DNA of 32,000 bases from Kiritimatiella glycovorans (GTDB lineage Bacteria > Verrucomicrobiota > Kiritimatiellia > Kiritimatiellales > Kiritimatiellaceae), in NCBI RefSeq assembly GCF_001017655.1, contig NZ_CP010904.1, forward strand, positions 690,001 through 722,000, given 5' to 3'. The notes beneath the pieces are model-generated. The model did not search any database and was not told the origin of the DNA. It saw nothing but the letters and a program-made list of their open reading frames with translations. Below, piece after piece: positions 2,896 to 28,578 of the stretch. The position numbers and the translations under genes were made by a program. Each line of letters starts with the position of its first letter. The stretch's first letter is position 1.

Positions 2896-3123
2896 GTTCG
2901 TAGTAGGCCCGCAGGCCCGCGCAGCGGAAAAAGTTCGTAGTAGGCCCGCAGGCCTGCGAAGCAGGGCCAGGGCCGTTATCTTCACGCGCCTGGCCTGCCG
3001 GGGGCAGGCGTGCGACGCTACTACGAACGGATAACGCGCCTTGGCCCTTCGGGCGCGTGCGGCGCTACTACGAACGGTATCACGCGCCTTGGCCCTTCGG
3101 GTGCGTGCGGCGCTACTACGAAC
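2896..3123. repeat. REP/BIME-like cluster of GTAG-headed palindromic units in both orientations
   Basis: GTTCGTAGTAGGCCCGCAGGCC occurs at 2896-2917 and 2933-2954. The inverse core CTACTACGAAC occurs at 3018-3028, 3065-3075 and 3113-3123, each preceded by a GC hairpin (ACGCGCC-TTGGCCCTTCG-GGCGCGT). The last three form a 47-48 bp tandem. Confidence 0.75.
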
Positions 3124-3126
3124 AGG

Positions 3127-5296: not shown

Positions 5297-5433
5297 CAGA
5301 GTCAGGGTCAGAGTTAGAGTCAGAATCAGAGTCAGAGTTAGAGTCAGAATCAGAATCAGAGTAAGAGTGGGAGGTGAGTGAGAAACCTGAAACCTGAGTA
5401 AGATCTCAGAGTCAGAGGGAGTGGGAAGCCTGA
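5297..5433 (+). repeat. Repeat family B copy (purine-rich hexamer array plus core), sense to nadB
   Basis: (GAGTCA/GAATCA/GAGTTA) x about 11, then GAGTAAGAGTGGGAGGTGAGTGAGAAACCTGAAACCTGAGTAAGA and GAGTCAGAGGGAGTGGGAAGCCTGA. It starts about 24 nt after the nadB stop. Confidence 0.8.
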
Positions 5434-5466
5434 CCTGAGTTCCACATGGGGGCCCCCGGGGGAATT
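5434..5466 (-). repeat. Module D, inverted copy
   Basis: The reverse complement reads GAATTCCCCCGGGGGCCCCCATGTGGAACTCAGG. It sits at the centre of the nadB/polA convergent spacer. Confidence 0.7.
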
Positions 5467-5512
5467 CAGCCTTCAGCCTTCAGGTTTCAGGTTTCCCACT
5501 CCTCATTCTCTC
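5467..5512 (-). repeat. Repeat family B copy, sense to polA
   Basis: The reverse complement reads GGAGAGAATGAGGAGTGGGAAACCTGAAACCTGAAGGCTGAAGGCTG. It begins about 10 nt after the polA stop. Confidence 0.7.
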
Positions 5513-5521
5513 CGCCCGATC

Positions 5522-8293
5522 TCAATGTGCCTCGAGCCAGTTCGCTCCTGTGCCGGAGTCGACGACGACGGGCACGGAGAGCGGCAGGGCCTCGCGCATG
5601 ATTTTCTCGATCCGGGGGACCAGCTCGGTCTGTTCCTCGAGGTGGAGGTCGAAGACGAGTTCATCGTGGACCTGCAGGAGCATCCGTGAGCGCAGACCTT
5701 CGCGGTCGATCAGGTCCCGGACGCGGATCATGGCCAGCTTGATCATATCGGCCGCCGTCCCCTGTATGGGGGCGTTGATGGCGTTGCGTTCCGCGGCGCC
5801 GCGGACGGTCGCGTTGCGGACGTGGATGTCGCGGATATGCCGGCGGCGGCCCGTCTTTGTCTCCACGTAACCGGTCTCGCGTGCGGCGGCGACCGTGCGC
5901 TCCATGTATTCGCGCACGCCGGGGTATTGCGTGAAATACTGCTCGATGATTTCCGCGCCCTCCTCGCGGGGGATGACGAGTCGCTGCGCGAGGCCGAACG
6001 CCGAGATACCGTAGATGAGGCCGAAATTAACCGTCTTGGCGCGCCGGCGCAGCTCGCGGTCGACGGACGGGGGCTCGACCCCGTAGATCCGGGATGCCGT
6101 GGCAGCATGGATGTCCTCGCCCCGCTCGAAGGCCTCCCGCATCCCCGTATCGCCGCTCAGGTCGGCCATGATGCGCAGCTCCACCTGCGAGTAGTCGCAG
6201 GCCAGCAGGGTGAACTCCTCCGAACGCGGGACGAAGGCGCGGCGGATCTCCTGTCCCTCCTCGCGCCGGATGGGAATGTTCTGAAGGTTGGGTGTGTGGC
6301 ATGCCAGCCGCCCGGTCGCGGTGTTGGTCTGGGCGAAATGGGTGTGGACCCGCCCGGTGGAAGACACGACGTACCGGGGCAGGGCGTCGACATAGGTGCC
6401 CTTCAGCTTCATCAGCCGACGGTGTTCGAGGAGTCGCGCCGCGATTTCGTGTTCCGTCGCCAGGGACTCCAGCACGGCTTCGTGGGTCGCGTACTGTCCG
6501 GTGCGGGTCTTTTTCGGTTTGGCCTTTAGTTTCAGATGGTCGAACAGGACTTCGCCGAGCTGTTTGGGGGAGTTGAGGTTGAACTCCATCCCCGCCTCCC
6601 GGTAAATGATCCGTTCCAGTTCCCGAAGCTGTTCTTCGAGCCGGGCGGCGAAGCGTTCCAGCGCCGCGGTATCGAGCGCAATCCCCTCGCACTCCATTTC
6701 GGCGAGCACGGGCACGAGCGGGCTTTCGATCTCGTAGAACACGCGCCGCTGTCCGGCCTCCTCCAGCATGGGTTCAAGTCGGCGCCAGAGCTGCAGCGTG
6801 ATGTCGGCGTCCTCGGCGGCATACTCCCGCAGACGGTCCGCGGGGACGTCGCGCAGCGTCTTCTGTTCGCGGCCCTTTTCCCCGATCAGTTCGCGGATCG
6901 GGATCGGGCGGTAATGAAGCAGCGTCTCGGCGACGTGGTCCATGCCGTGCCGCTGGTCGGGATCGATCAGGTAATGCGCGATCATCGTATCGTAGCAGGG
7001 ACCGCGAACCCGGATCCCCTGCCAGCGCAGGACACAGAGATCGAATTTCAGGTTATGGCCGATCTTGATCAGACCGTCGTCTTCCAGCACCGGCCTCAGA
7101 AGATCCAGCACCGTTTCGAGGCTGGACGCATCCACCGGGACAAACCACGCCTCGTGCGGTTCGACCGCGAAAGAGAGGCCGATCAGCTCCGCCGTCTCCG
7201 GATGCAGCGAGGTGGTCTCGGTATCGAGACAGAACGCTCCACTCGCCTTGAGCGTACGGCGGAGCGCCTTGAGGTCCTCCTCCGTCGATACGGCATGATA
7301 GTCGTGCGGGGTGTCTGCGATGGTGCTCACATCCCGGGGTTCCCCGGCGGTCTCCTCCATGGCGAACAGCTCTGTCTGCGCCGCTTCACCGGTCTCGGCG
7401 GCGACCGGTTTCGGCGCCGGTTCCTCGCCGAAAAGCCGACGAGCGACGGATTTCAGCTCGTACTTCCGCAGGAGGGTCCGGAGTTTCGCGGCGTCGGGGT
7501 CCCGCCGCCGGAAGTCCTCGAGCCGCACCTGCAGCGGTACGTCGCAGCGGATGGTCACGAGCTGCTTGCAGAGCCGGGCCCTGTCGCGGTTCTCCTCGAT
7601 CTTTTCGCGCTGTTTGCCCTTCAGCTCGTCGGTATGCGCCAGGAGGTTTTCGACCGAGCCGAACTGCCGGATGAGTTTCCCGGCCGTCTTTTCTCCGATC
7701 CCCGGCACGCCCGGGATGTTGTCGGAGGTGTCCCCGGCGAGGCCGAGGATGTCCGCGACCTGTCCGGGGTTTTCGATGCCCCATTGTTCGCGGACGTCGG
7801 ACGCGCCGAGGATTTCGGGCGGACCGCCCTTGCGGCCCGGGCGGTAGAGGTGGACGTGGTCGTTCACCAGCTGTGCGAAATCCTTGTCGGCGGTGACCAT
7901 GTAGGACTCGTAGCCCTCTTCCGGCGCATGGCGTGCGAGCGTGCCGATCACATCGTCGGCCTCCACCCCTTCCTCCATGAGCACCGGTATGTGGAACGCG
8001 TCGAGCATCTCGCGGATAATGGGCACGGACTCGACAATGCCCTCGGGCGTCTCCTCCCGCTGAGCTTTGTACTCGGGAAAGACCTCGTGGCGGAAGGTGG
8101 GTCCCCCGGCATCGATCGCCACCGCGATGTGCGTCGGCTCCTGATTTTCCTGGATTTCGACCAGGGCGTTCAGGAAGCCGAACACGGCCGACGTGTTCAC
8201 CCCGTCGGAGGTGATCAGCGGATTGCGCAGGAAGACGAAATAGGCCCGGTAGATCAGCCCCATGCCGTCGATCAGAAAAAGTTTCTTGTCCAT
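5522..8293 (-). CDS. polA: DNA polymerase I
   Basis: 923 aa with a 5'-nuclease N-terminus (LFLIDGMGLIYRAYF), a 3'-5' exonuclease domain (FCLDTETTSL) and polymerase motifs (DYSQVELRI, RRAAKTVNFGLIYG, QVHDELVF). Confidence 0.97.
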   Translation of the reverse strand: MDKKLFLIDGMGLIYRAYFVFLRNPLITSDGVNTSAVFGFLNALVEIQENQEPTHIAVAIDAGGPTFRHEVFPEYKAQREETPEGIVESVPIIREMLDAFHIPVLMEEGVEADDVIGTLARHAPEEGYESYMVTADKDFAQLVNDHVHLYRPGRKGGPPEILGASDVREQWGIENPGQVADILGLAGDTSDNIPGVPGIGEKTAGKLIRQFGSVENLLAHTDELKGKQREKIEENRDRARLCKQLVTIRCDVPLQVRLEDFRRRDPDAAKLRTLLRKYELKSVARRLFGEEPAPKPVAAETGEAAQTELFAMEETAGEPRDVSTIADTPHDYHAVSTEEDLKALRRTLKASGAFCLDTETTSLHPETAELIGLSFAVEPHEAWFVPVDASSLETVLDLLRPVLEDDGLIKIGHNLKFDLCVLRWQGIRVRGPCYDTMIAHYLIDPDQRHGMDHVAETLLHYRPIPIRELIGEKGREQKTLRDVPADRLREYAAEDADITLQLWRRLEPMLEEAGQRRVFYEIESPLVPVLAEMECEGIALDTAALERFAARLEEQLRELERIIYREAGMEFNLNSPKQLGEVLFDHLKLKAKPKKTRTGQYATHEAVLESLATEHEIAARLLEHRRLMKLKGTYVDALPRYVVSSTGRVHTHFAQTNTATGRLACHTPNLQNIPIRREEGQEIRRAFVPRSEEFTLLACDYSQVELRIMADLSGDTGMREAFERGEDIHAATASRIYGVEPPSVDRELRRRAKTVNFGLIYGISAFGLAQRLVIPREEGAEIIEQYFTQYPGVREYMERTVAAARETGYVETKTGRRRHIRDIHVRNATVRGAAERNAINAPIQGTAADMIKLAMIRVRDLIDREGLRSRMLLQVHDELVFDLHLEEQTELVPRIEKIMREALPLSVPVVVDSGTGANWLEAH

Positions 8294-8880: not shown

Positions 8881-8928
8881 AGGCTGCGTGGGGGGAGAGA
8901 TTGAGGGAGACCGGAAACCTAAGTAAAA
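8865..8928 (+). repeat. Repeat family B copy (degenerate), overlapping the aroK stop
   Basis: GAAGGCTGAGACCTGAAGGCTG ... GAGAGATTGAGGGAGACCGGAAACCTAAGTAAAAG. Confidence 0.6.
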
Positions 8929-9000
8929 GTGGTTCTTCGTGGATTTTTGTGGAACGACTGAAATCGTAGCGGCTGGATTAGAAATCCGCTTGCGTCACAA

Positions 9001-9080
9001 CGTACGCATACTCGTGCTCAGCGAAGCGGTACTCGTGCTCGATCTCTTGAATGGGATAAAGGATCGCGCCTTCGGCGCTC
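9001..9080 (-). repeat. Intergenic repeat family A, copy 3
   Basis: The plus strand reads CGTACGCATACTCGTGCTCAGCGAAGCGGTACTCGTGCTCGATCTCTTGAATGGGATAAAGGATCGCGCCTTCGGCGCTC. This is the reverse complement of the family A consensus. Confidence 0.8.
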
Positions 9081-9081
9081 C

Positions 9082-9116
9082 GAGTACGAGTACGAGTACG
9101 AGTAAGAGTAAGAATG
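9082..9116 (+). repeat. Hexamer tract (GAGTAC)3-GAGTAAGAGTAAGAATG
   Basis: Direct reading of the sequence. It uses the same GAGNNN word set as families A and B. Confidence 0.7.
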
Positions 9117-9135
9117 ATGTTCACCCCTTCATGCT

Positions 9136-9167
9136 CTTCAGCCATCAGGTTTCAGCCCTCTCACTCC
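9136..9167 (-). repeat. Repeat family B core, degenerate copy
   Basis: The reverse complement reads GGAGTGAGAGGGCTGAAACCTGATGGCTGAAG. Confidence 0.55.
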
Positions 9168-14985: not shown

Positions 14986-15150
14986 TCATGTGCTCTATGA
15001 CCCGGAGGTGAAGCCCGGTTTCGATTCTATTTTACTCTGATTCCTCCTCCTCCCCGAACCAACCTACACGTGCACCCCCTGGAGGCTGTGTTTTTGGGTA
15101 AAGCCTTGATTTCCCGGTCTGAATCCGTACCCTGACGACTCATTTTCTAC

Positions 15151-15207
15151 GGTGGATGTAGCTCAGTTGGTTAGAGTCCTGCTGTCCAGCAGGATGGCCT
15201 TGGAGGC
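15151..15207 (+). pseudogene. Truncated, diverged tRNA-His copy 1 (acceptor 5' strand and D-arm, foreign hairpin, remnant of anticodon 3' stem and variable loop)
   Basis: GGTGGATGTAGCTCAGTTGGTTAGAG matches the real tRNA. It is followed by the hairpin TCCTGCTGTCCAGCAGGA and then TGGCCTTGGAGGC (real tRNA: TGGCCCTGGAGGC). The T-arm and acceptor 3' strand are absent. Confidence 0.8.
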
Positions 15208-15272
15208 TGTGTTTTTGGGTAAAGCCTTGATTTCCCGGTCTGAATCCGTACCCTGATCGATTCATTTTCTAC

Positions 15273-15329
15273 GGTGGATGTAGCTCAGTTGGTTAGAGTC
15301 CTGCTGTCCAGCAGGATGGCCTTGGAGGC
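15273..15329 (+). pseudogene. Truncated, diverged tRNA-His copy 2
   Basis: Identical in sequence to copy 1. Confidence 0.8.
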
Positions 15330-15348
15330 TGTGTTTTTGGGTAAAGCC

Positions 15349-15376
15349 TTGATTTCCCGGTCTGAATCCGTACCCT
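15349..15376 (+). promoter_or_regulatory. Putative sigma70-like promoter TTGATT-N16-TACCCT for tRNA-His (also present in each repeat unit)
   Basis: TTGATT is at 15349-15354 and TACCCT at 15371-15376, about 19 nt before the tRNA. The same pair occurs at 15106-15133 and 15227-15254. Confidence 0.4.
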
Positions 15377-15394
15377 GATCGATTCATTTTCTAC

Positions 15395-15472
15395 GGTGGA
15401 TGTAGCTCAGTTGGTTAGAGCGCCAGGTTGTGGCCCTGGAGGCCGCGGGTTCAAATCCCGTCATTCACCCCA
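15395..15472 (+). tRNA. tRNA-His (anticodon GTG) with encoded G-1 and CCA
   Basis: Hand-folded cloverleaf. Acceptor is GTGGATG/CATTCAC. D-arm is GCTC-AGTTGGTTA-GAGC. Anticodon arm is CCAGG-TTGTGGC-CCTGG. T-arm is GCGGG-TTCAAAT-CCCGT. The extra 5' G (15395) opposite discriminator C is the tRNA-His hallmark. CCA is at 15470-15472. Confidence 0.93.
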
Positions 15473-15497
15473 TGTTCCTCAACGGTTCGATCCAGCC

Positions 15498-15758
15498 GTG
15501 TATTTCGTATATATCCTCTACTGTCCGGAGACGGGCTTGTCCTACGTCGGGCACACCAGCCACCTGATCCTTCGCTACTACGAGCATCGGGACGGGATGA
15601 GTCGTTGGACGCGGCGGATGCGATCGCCTTTCCTGGTCTACTGGGAGCATTTTGAATCGCGTTCCGAGGCGATGCGCAGGGAGAAGTATTTCAAGCACGG
15701 CTGCGGTTTCCGTGTGCGGGGGGAGATTATTCAGCGGTTTACGGTGGAGTGGATGTAG
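15498..15758 (+). CDS. GIY-YIG domain protein (COG2827/UPF0213-like small putative nuclease)
   Basis: YFVYILYCPETGLSYVGHTSHLILRYYEH..G and a later RREKYFK fit the GIY-YIG core. The only in-frame start after the tRNA is GTG 15498. The part of the track ORF from 15396 overlaps the tRNA. Confidence 0.7.
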   Translation: MYFVYILYCPETGLSYVGHTSHLILRYYEHRDGMSRWTRRMRSPFLVYWEHFESRSEAMRREKYFKHGCGFRVRGEIIQRFTVEWM

Positions 15759-15821: not shown

Positions 15822-16955
15822 ATGGATCGACGGCCCTATGTCCTGCACGTGATCACCCGTATCGACGGGGGCGGTTCGGCCGTCAATACGATGCTCAGCA
15901 TCGACGGGTTGTCGCAACGCGGCCGGCGCGTGAGGCTGATCACGGGATCGGCGCCGCCGGAGACGGCGCGACGCGGGGACGTGACGATCCTTCCCGCCCT
16001 TCGACGCGATATCCATCCGTGGCATGACCTGCGTGCGCTTTTCGGTCTCGTGCGCCTCATCGGCCACGAACGTCCCGATATCCTCCACGTGCATTCGTCC
16101 AAGGCGGGGCTGCTCGGAAGGATCGCGGGCCGGTGGTGCCGCGTGCCCCGCATCGTCTATACGCCGCACGGGCACGTCTTCGGCGGCTATTTCTCCCCGC
16201 CGGTCGCGCGTTTCTATCTCGCACTCGAACGCTGGGCGGCGGGATTCACGGACCGGCTGGTCGCGCTTACGGCCACGGAGCGTGACGAGGAACTCGCACT
16301 GAACATCGGACGGGAATCCCGGTACGCCGTGATCCCCAGCGGGGTGGACCTCGGGCGCTATGCCGGACCGGGGCCCGGCCCGGAGGCGCGGCGGCGCTTC
16401 GGCGTGCCGGAGGACGCGACGGCGTTCGGAACACTTGCACGCCTGGAACCGGTGAAAGGCGTGGACATCGCGCTTCGCGGGTTCGCCGCCGCACGCGAGA
16501 AAAACCGGGATCTCTTCTTTCTTGTGGCGGGCGACGGGGCGGAACGCTCCGCGCTGGAACGCCTCGCGGATGAACTGGGCGTCCGAGATCACGTTCTCTT
16601 CACGGGTTGGACCGGTGACCCCCGCGCTTTTTTCGGCGCGATCGACGGGTTCGTGCTCGCCTCGCGCAACGAGGGGATGGGCCGGGCCGCCGTCGAGGCG
16701 TCGGCCGCCGGTCTGCCGGTCATCGCCTCCGCAGTCGGAGGGCTCAACGACGTGGTGGCGGGCGGGGAAACGGGGCTGCTGTTCCCTCCGGAGTCGGCGG
16801 ACGAACTCGGGGCCGCCATGCTGGAACTGGCGGGCGACCCGGATCGGAGGCGGAAGATGGGCGCGGCGGGCCGGGCCCGGGCCGGCTTGTTCAGTCTGGA
16901 GGCGATGATCGACGGGCTGGAGCGGCTGTACGACGATCTGGAGCGCGAACGATGA
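15822..16955 (+). CDS. Glycosyltransferase family 4 (GT-B)
   Basis: N-terminal VLHVITRIDGGGSA, HVHSSKAG, and the C-terminal EGMGRAAVEASAAGLPVIASAVGGLNDVV..GETGLL (E-x7-E region). Confidence 0.88.
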   Translation: MDRRPYVLHVITRIDGGGSAVNTMLSIDGLSQRGRRVRLITGSAPPETARRGDVTILPALRRDIHPWHDLRALFGLVRLIGHERPDILHVHSSKAGLLGRIAGRWCRVPRIVYTPHGHVFGGYFSPPVARFYLALERWAAGFTDRLVALTATERDEELALNIGRESRYAVIPSGVDLGRYAGPGPGPEARRRFGVPEDATAFGTLARLEPVKGVDIALRGFAAAREKNRDLFFLVAGDGAERSALERLADELGVRDHVLFTGWTGDPRAFFGAIDGFVLASRNEGMGRAAVEASAAGLPVIASAVGGLNDVVAGGETGLLFPPESADELGAAMLELAGDPDRRRKMGAAGRARAGLFSLEAMIDGLERLYDDLERER

Positions 16956-18064
16956 GAGTGCTCGTCGACGCGCGCGAATTCGTGCCCGGCCGGATCACGG
17001 GGATCGGGCGCTACCTGCTCAACATCCTCCTTCCGCTGAAAGACCAGGGGGATGCTCCCGAGTGCATCCTGGCGGGCGACCCCGCGGCGATGCCGCCGGA
17101 ACTGGCGGGACCGCGGTTCCGCCGGGTCGCGGTCCCGGTCCGCCAGACGCAGCTCGCGGATCAGTGGGGTCTGCCGCATCTGGCCCGCCGATGGGAGGCG
17201 GACATCTTCTTCTCGCCGTACTACAAGGCCCCCCTGCGGTGTCCGGCTTCGGTCGTGCTGAGCGTTCCGGATGTCGCCTTTCTCCACCTCCCGGACGGTC
17301 CGCGCGGATTGAAGCGCGCGCTGGTGAAGGCCCAGCTCAGGGCGTCGCTGCGCAGGGCGGTGCGGGTGATCGCGATCTCGGACTGCACGCGGCGCGATCT
17401 CATATCGTTCGAACCCTCGGCGGCCGGAAAAATCACGGTGGTATACAATGACTACCCGGCGGCGTGGGACCGCCCGCTTCCGGGGGGGTCCCCCGTGGAC
17501 CGACCATTCATGCTCTACGTGGGTACGTTCAAACCGTACAAGCACGTCGACACGCTGGTCCGGGCCTGCGGTCTGCTGCGTGAACGGTTCCGGGAGCGGA
17601 GATGGAAGCTGGTGCTCGTCGGCGGCGCACCACCGGAAGAACGCGCGAAGATCGAGGCGCTGATCCGGGAGAAGGGTTTGGAAGACCTGGTCGAGCTGCG
17701 GTCGGGGCTGCCGGACGACGAACTGCGCCGTCATTACGCCCACGCGCGGTGGTTCGTGACGGCGTCGGGCTACGAAGGGTTCGGCCTGCCGCTGCTCGAA
17801 GCCATGGCCGCGGGTTGTCCGGCGGTCTATCACCGCGCCGCGTCCATGCCGGAGGTGGTCGGGGACACGGGGATCGCGTTCGACGATCCTTCGCCGCAGA
17901 CGGCGGCCGAGGCGATGGCGCGGGCCATGGACGAAGACGAGGCCGGGCGGGACGCGCTCGGACGCCGGGCGAGGGAACGCGCGGAACGTAAGTTTGCGCC
18001 GGGCAGCTGCGCCGCGGGGACGTGGGACGTGATAAGGGATGCCGTCGGGGGAGGGGGGGGGTAG
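16952..18064 (+). CDS. Glycosyltransferase family 4 (GT-B)
   Basis: ATGA overlap with the upstream GT. ITGIGRYLLN and EGFGLPLLEAMAAGCPAVYHRAASMPEVVGDTGIAFD. It ends VGGGGG-stop within a G5-A-G9 tract. Confidence 0.88.
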   Translation: MRVLVDAREFVPGRITGIGRYLLNILLPLKDQGDAPECILAGDPAAMPPELAGPRFRRVAVPVRQTQLADQWGLPHLARRWEADIFFSPYYKAPLRCPASVVLSVPDVAFLHLPDGPRGLKRALVKAQLRASLRRAVRVIAISDCTRRDLISFEPSAAGKITVVYNDYPAAWDRPLPGGSPVDRPFMLYVGTFKPYKHVDTLVRACGLLRERFRERRWKLVLVGGAPPEERAKIEALIREKGLEDLVELRSGLPDDELRRHYAHARWFVTASGYEGFGLPLLEAMAAGCPAVYHRAASMPEVVGDTGIAFDDPSPQTAAEAMARAMDEDEAGRDALGRRARERAERKFAPGSCAAGTWDVIRDAVGGGGG

Positions 18065-18065
18065 T

Positions 18066-19100
18066 TTCGTGGCAACAACCCGCTTCGCGGGTTTCGTGAA
18101 AGTCGGGGGGGGAGATCGTGGCAGGCCCTTACGGGCTTCGTGGCAGTCGGGGGGAGAGTCGTGTCAACGGCCCATACGGGCCTCGTGGCAGTCGGGGGGA
18201 GAGTCGTGGCAACGGCCCTTACGGGCCTCGTGGCAGTCGGGGAAAGCTCCGTTCCTCCGAGGCGCGCAGCGCCGTTGCCCCGAGCGCAGCGTTGTCCCGA
18301 GGCGCGCAGCGCCGTTTTCACGAGCGAAGCGTGGGGGAGATCGTGGCAGTCGGGAAAACCGTGTCAACGGCCCATACGGGCCTCGAGGCAGTCGGGGAAA
18401 GCTCCGTTCCTCCGAGGCGCGCAGCGCCGTTGCCTCGAGCGCAGCGTTCCCACGAGGCGCGTAGCGCCGTTTTCACGAGCGAAGCGTGGAAGATCGTGGC
18501 AACAACCCGCTTCGCGGGTTTCGTGAAAGTCGGGGGGAGAGTCGTGTCAACGGTCCAAGGGCCTCGTGGCAGTCGGGGACGTGCCGTTTCCCCGAGCGCA
18601 GCGTTGTCCCGAGGCGCGCAGCGCCGTTTTCACGAGCGAAGCGTGGGGGAGATCGTGGCAGTCGGGAAAACCGTGTCAACGGCCCAAGGGCCTCGTGGCA
18701 GTCGGGGAAAGCTCCGTTCCTCCGAGGCGCGCAGCGCCGTTGCCTCGAGCGCAGCGTTCCCACGAGGCGCGTAGCGCCGTTTTCACGAGCGAAGCGTGGA
18801 AGATCGTGGCAACAACCCGCTTCGCGGGTTTCGTGAAAGTCGGGGGGAGATCGTGTCAACGGCCCATACGGGCCTCGTGGAAGTCGGGGGAAATGCCGTT
18901 CCACGAGCGCAGCGTTGTCCCGAGGCCGAAGGCCGTTTCTCCGAGGCGCGCAGCGCCGTTGCCTCGAGCGCAGCGTTCCCACGAGGCGCGTAGCGCCGTT
19001 TTCACGATCCCCCCCGAGGCCGAAGGCCGTTGCCACGAGCGCAGCGTTTCCACGAGGCGCGCAGCGCCGTTCCCACGAGCGAAGCGTGGAAGATCGTGCC
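18066..19100. repeat. About 1-kb mosaic array of short GC-rich hairpin modules with a 312-bp higher-order repeat
   Basis: Recurring modules are TCGTGGCAGTCGGGG (about 12x including variants), CAACGGCCC-ATAC-GGGCC, ACCCGC-TTC-GCGGGT, GAGGCGC-GCA-GCGCCGTT, CACG-AGCGAAG-CGTGG and GGCC-GAA-GGCC. 18281-18592 is repeated at 18593-18903. 18391-18540 and 18701-18850 read identical. Confidence 0.9.
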
Positions 19101-19156
19101 CTCCATTTGATCCGTGCTCGTGCCGGAATGGAAAGCCATCAACGCAGACCTGATCT

Positions 19157-19540
19157 TCAATCCGCCATCAGCCCCCGCAGGGTCTGCTCGAACGATTCGA
19201 TCGTGAATTCACCCTTCTGCACGACCGCGTCGCAGGAACCGGACAGTTTTTCCGTCTCCTGCTCGGAGGTGTTGGCGCCGGTGAGGATGATCGTTTTCAT
19301 CTGTTCAAAAAGGGGATTCTGCCGCACGTAGTCCAGCAGGTCCCACCCGGTCAGTTTCGGGAGCAGAAGGTCCACGATCATGATCCGGTAGAGGCCGGGC
19401 GAGGAGTCCAGTTTCTTCATCGCCTCTTCGCCGTTGCCCGCCAGGTCGTATTCGAGGTTCATGCGGCGGAGCAGCTTGGAGAGCAGCTGCTGGACGGGTC
19501 GCTCGTCCTCGACGATTAAAACTCGCTTGGGCCTTTCCAT
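19157..19540 (-). CDS. Single-domain response regulator (CheY-like receiver)
   Basis: VLIVEDE, the phospho-acceptor context IMIVDLLLP, and a conserved T (ILTG) and K (VQKG). ATG 19540 is 16 nt downstream of the ATPase stop. Confidence 0.85.
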   Translation of the reverse strand: MERPKRVLIVEDERPVQQLLSKLLRRMNLEYDLAGNGEEAMKKLDSSPGLYRIMIVDLLLPKLTGWDLLDYVRQNPLFEQMKTIILTGANTSEQETEKLSGSCDAVVQKGEFTIESFEQTLRGLMAD

Positions 19541-20432: not shown

Positions 20433-20504
20433 CAGGTTTCTCACTCCCTCTTACTCTGACTCTGACTCTGACTCTGACTCTGATTCTGATTCTGATTCTG
20501 ACTC
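20433..20504 (-). repeat. Repeat family B copy, sense to the wecA-like gene
   Basis: The reverse complement reads (GAGTCA)(GAATCA)3(GAGTCA)4 GAGTAAGAGGGAGTGAGAAACCTG. It covers the last 17 codons and the stop of the upstream gene. Confidence 0.85.
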
Positions 20505-27656: not shown

Positions 27657-28325
27657 ATGACGGAGTCCGTAATCGGCGCCGGGGTGCTGCTGGTCGATGA
27701 CGAACCATCGGTCCGCAGACTGTGCGAAAAAATGCTCCGCGACGCGTGGGAGGTGCGCTCGGCGGGGAGCATCGCGGAGGCCGAGACCGTGCTGGAGCAG
27801 TTTTCGCCCAAGGTCGCGGTGTGTGATTTCAAACTTCCCGACGGCGACGGGTGCGCGTTCCTGAAAATGCTTCTGGAACGCGACGCCAAGATACAGCGCA
27901 TCCTGCTTACGGGCTATACGGACCCCGAAATGATGCGGCGCGGGATCAATGAGGCGCGACTGTTCCGGATGATCGGGAAGCCGGTGTCGACCGCGGAACT
28001 GCGTGCGGCGGTCGAATACGCAGCGCTGGAATACGACATCCTCGATACCGCGGAGTACGTCGCGGCGGAACACGACCGGTTCAAGCAGGAACTGGAGAGC
28101 TGGCCCTGCCGCGCCGAACGCTGGGCCCGCTTTCTCAACCGCAGCCTCGTCCAGTTCGGCCGCTTCCTGGTGCGCGCGACGGCCCTCGTCACCGTCGCCG
28201 TCGGGATCTGGATCGCCCTCGGATTCTTCGGTATCGTGTTCCTGTATTTCATGAAATCCTGGTTCGGCGTGGATCTCCTGCCGCATGCCCACATTGAGAA
28301 TCTCGTGCGGGGGATCATGCGGTGA
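27657..28325 (+). CDS. Response-regulator receiver domain with a C-terminal transmembrane tail (no recognisable output domain)
   Basis: LLVDDEPSV, VAVCDFKLPDGDG, ILLTGYTD and GKPV form the receiver. The C-terminus carries the hydrophobic helix ALVTVAVGIWIALGFFGIVFLYF. Confidence 0.8.
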   Translation: MTESVIGAGVLLVDDEPSVRRLCEKMLRDAWEVRSAGSIAEAETVLEQFSPKVAVCDFKLPDGDGCAFLKMLLERDAKIQRILLTGYTDPEMMRRGINEARLFRMIGKPVSTAELRAAVEYAALEYDILDTAEYVAAEHDRFKQELESWPCRAERWARFLNRSLVQFGRFLVRATALVTVAVGIWIALGFFGIVFLYFMKSWFGVDLLPHAHIENLVRGIMR

Positions 28326-28578
28326 GGAAGAGGAAGAGGAAGAATCAGAATCAGAGTCAGAGTAAGAGGGAGTGAGAAACCTGAGACCTGAGACCTGAGT
28401 AAGAGGGAGTGAGAAACCTGAGACCTGAGACCTGAGTAAGAGGGAGTGAGAAACCTGAAACCTGAGACCTGAGTAAGAGGGAGTGAGAAACCTGAAACCT
28501 GAGACCTGAGTAAGAGGACAGAGTCAGAGGAAGAGTTTGAAACCTGAGACCTGAGTAAGAAACCTGAGACCTGAGTGG
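28326..28578 (+). repeat. Repeat family B, largest copy: purine hexamers plus four 37-bp tandem units and a degenerate tail
   Basis: (GAGGAA)n and (GAATCA)2 GAGTCA come first. GAGTAAGAGGGAGTGAGAAACCTGAGACCTGAGACCT then starts at 28360, 28397, 28434 and 28471. The array starts at the stop codon of the receiver gene. Confidence 0.9.

Follow-up and report, generated by a model that had tools for sequence, protein, structure and literature searches.

A hierarchical, non-coding hairpin-repeat array in Kiritimatiella glycovorans at the meeting point of two sugar-polymer operons

In the 32-kb window of the Kiritimatiella glycovorans genome analysed here, to which all coordinates below refer unless another contig is named, positions 18067-19093 form a single non-coding repeat structure, which takes up the whole gap where two sugar-polymer operons converge. 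This array is real and well defined, and it is unusually large and hierarchical: all of its modules belong to one unit type, and these units recur with nested periods that culminate in a higher-order repeat of recent origin. It is absent from the only syntenic relative that we found, and it is no conserved regulator of the exopolysaccharide (EPS) locus in which it lies. The explanation that we favour, and to which we give about an even chance, is that the array is a lineage-specific, non-coding satellite of hairpins resembling repetitive extragenic palindromes (REPs) and bacterial interspersed mosaic elements (BIMEs), which was amplified in place and probably provides 3'-end hairpins on both convergent transcripts.

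Anatomy of the array

Every module of the array consists of a degenerate 10-nt box and either a palindrome, perfect over its full length, or a C/G-run. The box reads TCGTGGCAAC, or GTTGCCACGA on the opposite strand, and about 51 boxes can be placed. The units, of about 20 bp each, stand head to tail in ten blocks whose orientation alternates from block to block, with an irregular box spacing of 17-27 bp. The box is exact in only 5 of the 51 copies, and it is the most conserved element, the palindromes being variable; as a pattern it has 22 matches in the array and one elsewhere, against an expectation of 3.2 +/- 1.8 across the whole window, an enrichment far above chance. Among the 41 box-to-box spacers that lie within blocks, 32 are full-length perfect palindromes and three are near-palindromes, all variants of GGCCC-loop-GGGCC in which G stands opposite T (or T opposite G) or the edge of the box is displaced. 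A previous interpretation made from the letters alone (the sequence-only reading) had described five hairpin modules in shuffled order, separated by 12 copies of a constant linker. All five modules are present (GGCGC-GNA-GCGCC ten times, GGCCC-N2-4-GGGCC seven times, ACCCGC-TTC-GCGGGT three times, GGCC-GAA-GGCC twice and CACG-AGCGAAG-CGTG five times). However, the linker TCGTGGCAGTCGGG has seven exact copies, and the modules are not shuffled but are one unit type in ten blocks of alternating orientation, two apparent sets of modules being linked by a single box that occurs in one and, as its reverse complement, in the other. Read in the sense in which the spacer precedes GTTNNCNCGA, the spacer types are as follows.

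GGCGCG(C/T)AGCGCC: 10 copies
GCGCAGC: 8 copies
GCGAAGC: 5 copies
GGCCGAAGGCC: 2 copies
GGCCC-GTAA/GTAT/TTG-GGGCC: 7 copies
AACCCGCGAAGCGGGTT: 3 copies
C-run (CTCTCCCCCCG and variants): 7 copies, plus one fused to a GGCCGAAGGCC hairpin

In this same sense, the loops are GCA, GAA, GTA, GTAA or GTAT, nearly all of them conforming to GNA or GNNA closed by a C-G pair. The stems range from 2 to 7 bp and the spacers from 5 to 21 nt. The exact heptamer GCGNAGC occurs 25 times in the array (the + strand carrying 22 and the - strand 3) and 51 times in the other 31 kb, which corresponds to densities of about 24 and 1.6 per kb, respectively.

Superimposed on the units is a hierarchy of periods. Offset analysis gave nested periods of 20/23, 40/45, 155, 310 and 465 bp, of which the intermediate period of about 155 bp corresponds to one forward plus one reverse block, and Tandem Repeats Finder (TRF) reported a 310-bp period with 2.1 copies and a 95% match (18271-18938), as well as sub-periods of 45 and 40 bp. 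When 18281-18592 was aligned with 18593-18903, 302 of 315 columns were identical (96%). The sequence-only reading had noted a unit of about 312 bp present twice with a 150-nt identical stretch, and the alignment bears this out, the longest identical run being 154 nt (18387-18540 = 18697-18850). The hierarchy of periods and the 96% identity of the two higher-order copies indicate a recent tandem duplication. The blocks and higher-order copies are arranged as follows.

18067-18250, + strand: F1, eight forward units, each with a box (TCGTGGCAAC or TCGTGGCAGT) and then a hairpin or G-run; 45-bp super-unit, 3.3 copies
18251-18340, + strand: R1, five reverse units, hairpin followed by GTTNNCNCGA; 40-bp super-unit
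18341-18405: block F2
18406-18493: block R2
18494-18585: block F3
18586-18652: block R3
18653-18715: block F4
18716-18803: block R4
18804-18896: block F5
18897-19093, + strand: R5, about 10 terminal reverse units, more diverged; sub-periods of 40 and 71 bp (TRF 18941-19087)
19094-19103, + strand: final degenerate forward box TCGTGCCCTC, the right edge of the array
18281-18592, + strand: higher-order repeat copy 1 (parts of R1 and all of F2, R2 and F3)
18593-18903, + strand: higher-order repeat copy 2 (R3, F4, R4 and F5)

Within these blocks, TRF delimited F1 at 18094-18242 (period 45, 89% match), the hairpins of R1 are GGCGCGCAGCGCC, GCGCAGC and GCGAAGC, and R5 carries two GGCCGAAGGCC hairpins.

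The array begins 2 nt past the stop codon (18062-18064) of a gene for a family 4 glycosyltransferase (GT4) and ends 63 nt short of the stop at 19157 of a CheY-like gene.

16952-18064, + strand: GT4-family glycosyltransferase (Pfam Glycos_transf_1 / Glyco_transf_4), the protein being 100% identical to a K. glycovorans protein
19157-19540, - strand: receiver-only CheY-like response regulator (Pfam), in an operon kept in the related contigs L133-L137

The CheY gene is the last in an operon with the order WbqC, PIG-L, DegT, Glycos_transf_4, AAA_22 and CheY. The array had been placed between the second GT4 gene and a CheY/ATPase operon inside an EPS locus, and this holds, the operon being that of CheY and AAA_22 in a polysaccharide locus. 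At the opposite edge, the last six or so codons of the GT4 gene (..AVGGGGG*) are encoded by a G-run, GTCGGGGGAGGGGGGGGGTAG (18041-18064), that resembles the G-run module of the array, and the ..AVGGGGG tail is not found in homologs. The left edge of the array therefore extends into the GT4 gene, the extra glycine tail being encoded by an array-like G-run.

Coding potential and distribution

The array is non-coding, as the sequence-only reading had also held. Its claim that all six frames are open was correct in part: stop-free stretches of 100-224 codons occur in every frame, but the frames are not open throughout. No Pfam family scored above threshold in the stop-free frames (the nearest, Collagen, reached 19 bits against a 27-bit cut-off), and the six-frame translation, as a 1004-aa concatenate, had no homolog among 5.8 billion proteins. 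The periods of 310, 40 and 23 bp are not those of a protein-coding tandem repeat, the period not being a multiple of 3. Because no K. glycovorans protein matches the translation of the array, there is no record of an open reading frame (ORF) called inside it. Nor is it a CRISPR array, and here too the first assessment stands: there are no unique spacers, the intervals of 17-27 bp are irregular, the 5-21-nt 'spacers' are themselves repeated palindromes, and Pfam detected no cas domain anywhere in the window. A CRISPR array would consist of constant repeats of 24-48 bp set apart by unique spacers about as long as the repeats, usually near cas genes.

The closest and only syntenic relative found is a JGI contig (L137) that has the same convergent arrangement of GT4 and CheY-AAA_22, with a GT4 protein that is 50% identical. 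In this relative the ends of the GT4 and CheY genes share 14 bp (3194-3207 of L137) and leave no intergenic DNA, and therefore the array is a lineage-specific gain and not a conserved part of the locus. In the more distant contigs L133-L136 (AAA_22 about 50% identical), the operon is kept and fumarase or another gene lies directly after CheY. Contig L132, from the ENA sample ERZ10759774, has about 92% DNA identity and ends within the CheY gene.

Searches for related arrays in other collections yielded one locus of possible relevance. A three-box pattern that ignored the hairpins matched 91 metagenome loci, which we rejected as simple tandem repeats with no relation to the array, their match following from the way the pattern is built; the same pattern had one match among viral contigs, and the plasmid and phage searches gave no related array. 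Arrays on AT-rich marine contigs (L044, L045, L077, L109 and L125) were likewise rejected, as they consist of TCGTGGGAAC and GAGATAnnTATC head to tail, and their box is the loop of a different hairpin (ATCTCG/CGAGAT around a TCGTGGGAAC loop) whose agreement with the array at the three free positions of the box does not exceed chance expectation. Contig L065 (Ga0114931_10017977, 69% GC) carries at 7333-7460 an intergenic 23-bp tandem repeat, GTTCCCRCGAGCGAAGCGGCTGC, in about six copies, which has 19 nt in common with one type of array unit, including a GCGAAGC mini-hairpin. It is the sole metagenome locus of this kind, and it may be either a distant relation of the array or a product of convergence. 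The same searches also brought up a 24-bp tandem repeat, CCGTTCTCRCGAGSAAYAAGTA, on at least 24 contigs of 68-74% GC, mostly from ERZ772/773 assemblies, which is unrelated to the array beyond the search pattern and is a dispersed family of some high-GC organism. The contigs that carry it are listed here.

L042, L049, L050, L056, L057, L059, L066, L074, L082, L083, L087, L091
L092, L102, L110, L111, L113, L115, L119, L122-L124, L127, L129

Origin of the array and competing explanations

REPs are short GC-rich palindromes with a conserved unpaired flank and a GTAG (GYRG) or CGTC tag at the end of the stem; they lie mostly between convergent or unidirectional ORFs, their subtypes are mixed within a cluster, and their amplification and clustering have been described as linked (PMC3733652). 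Bacteria of the Planctomycetes-Verrucomicrobia-Chlamydiae (PVC) group such as Opitutus terrae are REP-rich, and in Thauera arrays of REPs flank EPS genes (PMC3733652). As a class, REPs measure 20-40 bp, are scattered through the genome in more than 100 copies and flank the gene of a cognate Y1 HUH transposase. The array of K. glycovorans fits this picture in that 35 hairpin units of 17-27 bp, box included, occupy a non-coding gap as short GC-rich extragenic palindromes. BIMEs are regularly spaced REPs in alternating orientation with conserved linkers between them (PMC2817692). In the array only 9 orientation flips occur among about 51 units, which stand head to tail inside the blocks. Of the three roles proposed by the sequence-only reading, a BIME-like super-cluster is the closest in kind, although strict alternation, the tag and further copies of the modules in the window are all lacking.

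An array of this kind could have arisen from a starting unit of about 20 bp, in which a 10-nt box (in the GTTGCCACGA sense) stood beside a short perfect GC palindrome with a GCGNAGC or C-GNA-G core. Such units would have multiplied head to tail, a forward and a reverse block would have formed an inverted composite of about 155 bp, and this composite would have been re-duplicated in tandem to give the 310-bp repeat, the latest step being the two 96%-identical copies. The likely engine would be template switching or slipped-strand mispairing where single strands fold into hairpins of great stability, together with unequal recombination or gene conversion, and a single-strand-specific HUH nuclease of the type of REP-associated tyrosine transposases (RAYTs) may have participated. 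The array occupies the 3' gap of two convergent operons, a place that tolerates insertions. Whichever operon it came from, read-through RNA would contain GC hairpins one after another; these would hinder 3'-5' exonucleases and could impede RNA polymerase, so that the array would probably act as a 3'-end stabilizer or insulator. A consensus scan found no intrinsic terminator in the array, the ACCCGC-TTC-GCGGGT hairpin being followed only by TTTCGTGA.

The window also contains a separate REP-like cluster at 2896-3125, between two + strand genes, in which GC hairpins with GCA or GAA loops come after GTTCGTAGTAG, which bears a GTAG tag; it has two forward copies (2896 and 2933) and three reverse copies (3018, 3065 and 3113), with a 48-bp tandem period. 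This GTAG-tagged cluster shows that REP-like elements are hosted by the genome of K. glycovorans.

Several observations weigh against the REP/BIME-like explanation. No GTAG or CGTC tag abuts the stems, which have NCGA as their 5' flank and GTT as their 3' flank; 34 of the 51 boxes do contain GTGG/GTGN, yet 4 nt away from the stem. The head-to-tail order of the array is rare among REPs (PMC3733652). No RAYT or other transposase was detected in the window by Pfam; the genome as a whole has 75 transposase genes, of unspecified type (PMC5148204). No copy of the modules or units occurs elsewhere in the window. Among 185,579 species genomes, a collection in which the rest of the source genome was possibly not included, the two-unit pattern GCGCCGTTNNCNCGAGCGNAGCG gave 40 single matches, none of them in Kiritimatiella, and these are chance matches since they are single, come from unrelated high-GC taxa and show no clustering of boxes. 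A homology between the array and the GTAG cluster, which by eye seemed to reach 15 of 20 positions, was rejected when BLAST against 200 control segments showed no excess similarity. Finally, nearest-neighbour folding gives the 7-nt hairpins only -0.5 to -2 kcal/mol and the longer hairpins -3 to -8 kcal/mol; by these standard energies the mini-hairpins have little stability, their special stability, which such energies do not capture, being taken from the literature.

The main rival is a local neutral tandem satellite, in which a terminator-like palindrome in the convergent gap would have been amplified by replication slippage and unequal crossing-over; such a satellite would not be mobile, would lack an enzyme of its own and would be unrelated to REPs. 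We regard this as possible but clearly less probable than the REP/BIME-like explanation. The restriction of the modules to one locus within the window, the lack of a related array in the genome, metagenome, viral, plasmid, phage and protein collections searched, the absence from the syntenic relative and the lack of significant similarity to the GTAG cluster all agree with it, and a hierarchical higher-order structure is typical of satellites. In contrast, the array holds six different palindromes, all perfectly complementary and all with the same strand-specific GNA/GNNA loop sense relative to the same box, which exceeds what copying of one progenitor would give. This constancy of palindrome and loop suggests a constraint or a mechanism acting on single strands. 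In addition, the presence of both orientations would need inversions or template switches besides slippage.

A further candidate is a previously undescribed class of repeats that act as single-stranded DNA, in which a strand-specific unit of box and GCGNAGC is recognized or generated on the lagging-strand template and amplifies itself head to tail into a centromere-like satellite. The agents might be an HUH nuclease, primase as at single-strand initiation (ssi)-type sites, or fork stalling, and the satellite could double as a barrier to replication or transcription between the convergent operons. We consider such a class unlikely.

Still less credit can be given to an array of protein-binding sites, in which some 50 boxes would form an iterated site for a locus-specific regulator, or for proteins such as gyrase or IHF at BIMEs, or would form a centromere resembling sopC. 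In its favour, the box is the most conserved element amid variable palindromes, and its spacing of about 20-23 bp is near two helical turns. BIMEs of Escherichia coli are known to bind proteins (PMC2817692). However, the array stands at the 3' end of each flanking operon and so cannot be an operator for them, Pfam shows no DNA-binding domain in the adjacent CheY, neither ParA/ParB nor a DNA-binding regulator was identified among the neighbours, the box is degenerate and the syntenic relative has no array. The idea that the array binds proteins next to two response regulators, put forward in the sequence-only reading, finds no support: the adjacent CheY is receiver-only, the array stands at 3' ends, and the relative has not even a gap. 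A reading of TGGCA...TGC as a sigma-54 promoter was also rejected, the pattern TGGCA-N6-YTGC having no match.

It is very improbable that the array is an independently transcribed structured RNA gene or a regulatory RNA sponge. Its predicted folding beats shuffled controls on both strands (z = -4.6 and -5.8), and two stem variants would be G-U wobbles on the + strand; however, excess folding is trivially expected from inverted blocks, and two wobble cases are too few to be meaningful. The whole window gave no Rfam match at gathering score except tRNA-His, and the segment 17900-19300 gave none even at E <= 1. No sigma-70-like promoter-like site was found in 15-21 kb by consensus scan, and the array is not conserved in relatives. 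The multi-hairpin RNA envisaged earlier therefore survives only as a possible by-product of read-through. Scarcely credible, lastly, is an assembly artefact or a mis-called coding repeat: such repeats do mis-assemble from short reads and long stop-free frames are present, but the genome assembly drew on PacBio libraries of >10 kb, at 265x, and was checked against Illumina reads (PMC5148204), so that a 1-kb array is well inside the read length, and the 310-bp period and the negative Pfam and protein searches oppose a coding origin.

The window holds other repeats as well. At 15080-15472, a 122-bp unit is present 2.8 times with 99% identity; its copies comprise the upstream region and first 24 nt or so of tRNA-His, followed by a hairpin and a T-run, and only the last copy runs into the intact tRNA-His (15396-15472), after which comes a small GIY-YIG ORF, located in 15396-15758. 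The arrangement resembles what repeated duplication or integration events at the tRNA would leave behind. A family of intergenic hexamer/heptamer microsatellites occurs in both orientations at 5297-5495, 8895-9165, 20448-20504 and 28324-28576, with the motifs (CAGAGT)n and its complement (CTCTGA)n, GAAACCT/GAGACCT and its complement TTCAGGT, and a 37-bp composite present five times. The tract at 20448-20504 measures about 16 nt in the 92%-identical contig L132 and 66 nt here.

If the REP/BIME-like explanation is true, the array would be, to judge from the literature, the first element of its type known in the phylum Kiritimatiellota; a search of the literature on Kiritimatiella found nothing on repeats, RAYTs or REP doublets forming hairpins (REPINs). 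The array is an unusually clean example of a hairpin repeat growing into a hierarchical satellite (20 to 40/45 to 155 to 310 bp), and its dense, strand-consistent use of GCGNAGC makes it a natural test bed for hairpin-driven repeat expansion or for protection of mRNA 3' ends. It would also be a hypervariable typing marker, and it is a trap for short-read assembly and for ORF callers. It provides no evidence of a new regulatory system of the EPS locus.

Comparison with known repeat systems

The sopC centromere of the F plasmid has 12 repeats of 43 bp, each with a short inverted repeat, and block F1 is similar to it in having tandem units of about 45 bp that each contain a short inverted repeat. 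Unlike sopC, the array is chromosomal, has no partition genes nearby and mixes orientations and modules. The neisserial intergenic mosaic elements (NIMEs), in which RS blocks are flanked by 20-bp dRS3 repeats, share with the array an intergenic mosaic of a short constant repeat and variable modules that forms large clusters. In contrast to the array, their modules are of 50-150 bp and are not hairpins, the sequence of dRS3 (which corresponds to CGTC-1, PMC3733652) is unrelated, and they are dispersed genome-wide.

The mini-hairpin DNA motif GCGNAGC/GCGNNAGC is reported to be exceptionally thermostable and nuclease-resistant, a stability that depends on the C-G closing pair (PMC13037366; PMC3201870). 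The array resembles the motif described by Hirao and co-workers (PMC13037366) in its 25 exact GCGNAGC heptamers and in the CCGAAGG and CCGTAAGG variants that form hairpin cores, all in one sense relative to the box. Known natural mini-hairpins are single sites in promoters and in phage or plasmid single-strand origins, whereas the hairpins predicted here extend over a kilobase.

The large REP clusters and BIMEs described by Di Nocera et al. in 2013 (PMC3733652) offer the closest likeness, the array being most like a large selfish cluster of this type. They too are GC-rich extragenic palindromes of about 20-35 bp with an unpaired conserved flank, lie between convergent genes, mix subtypes, have inverted neighbours (as at the block junctions of the array), are built by tandem reiteration of dimers with flanking DNA, and occur in PVC bacteria and beside EPS genes. 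The array of K. glycovorans differs from them in lacking a tag that abuts the stem, in its head-to-tail blocks of 3-10 units, in its stems of 2-7 bp and in its 310-bp higher-order repeat.

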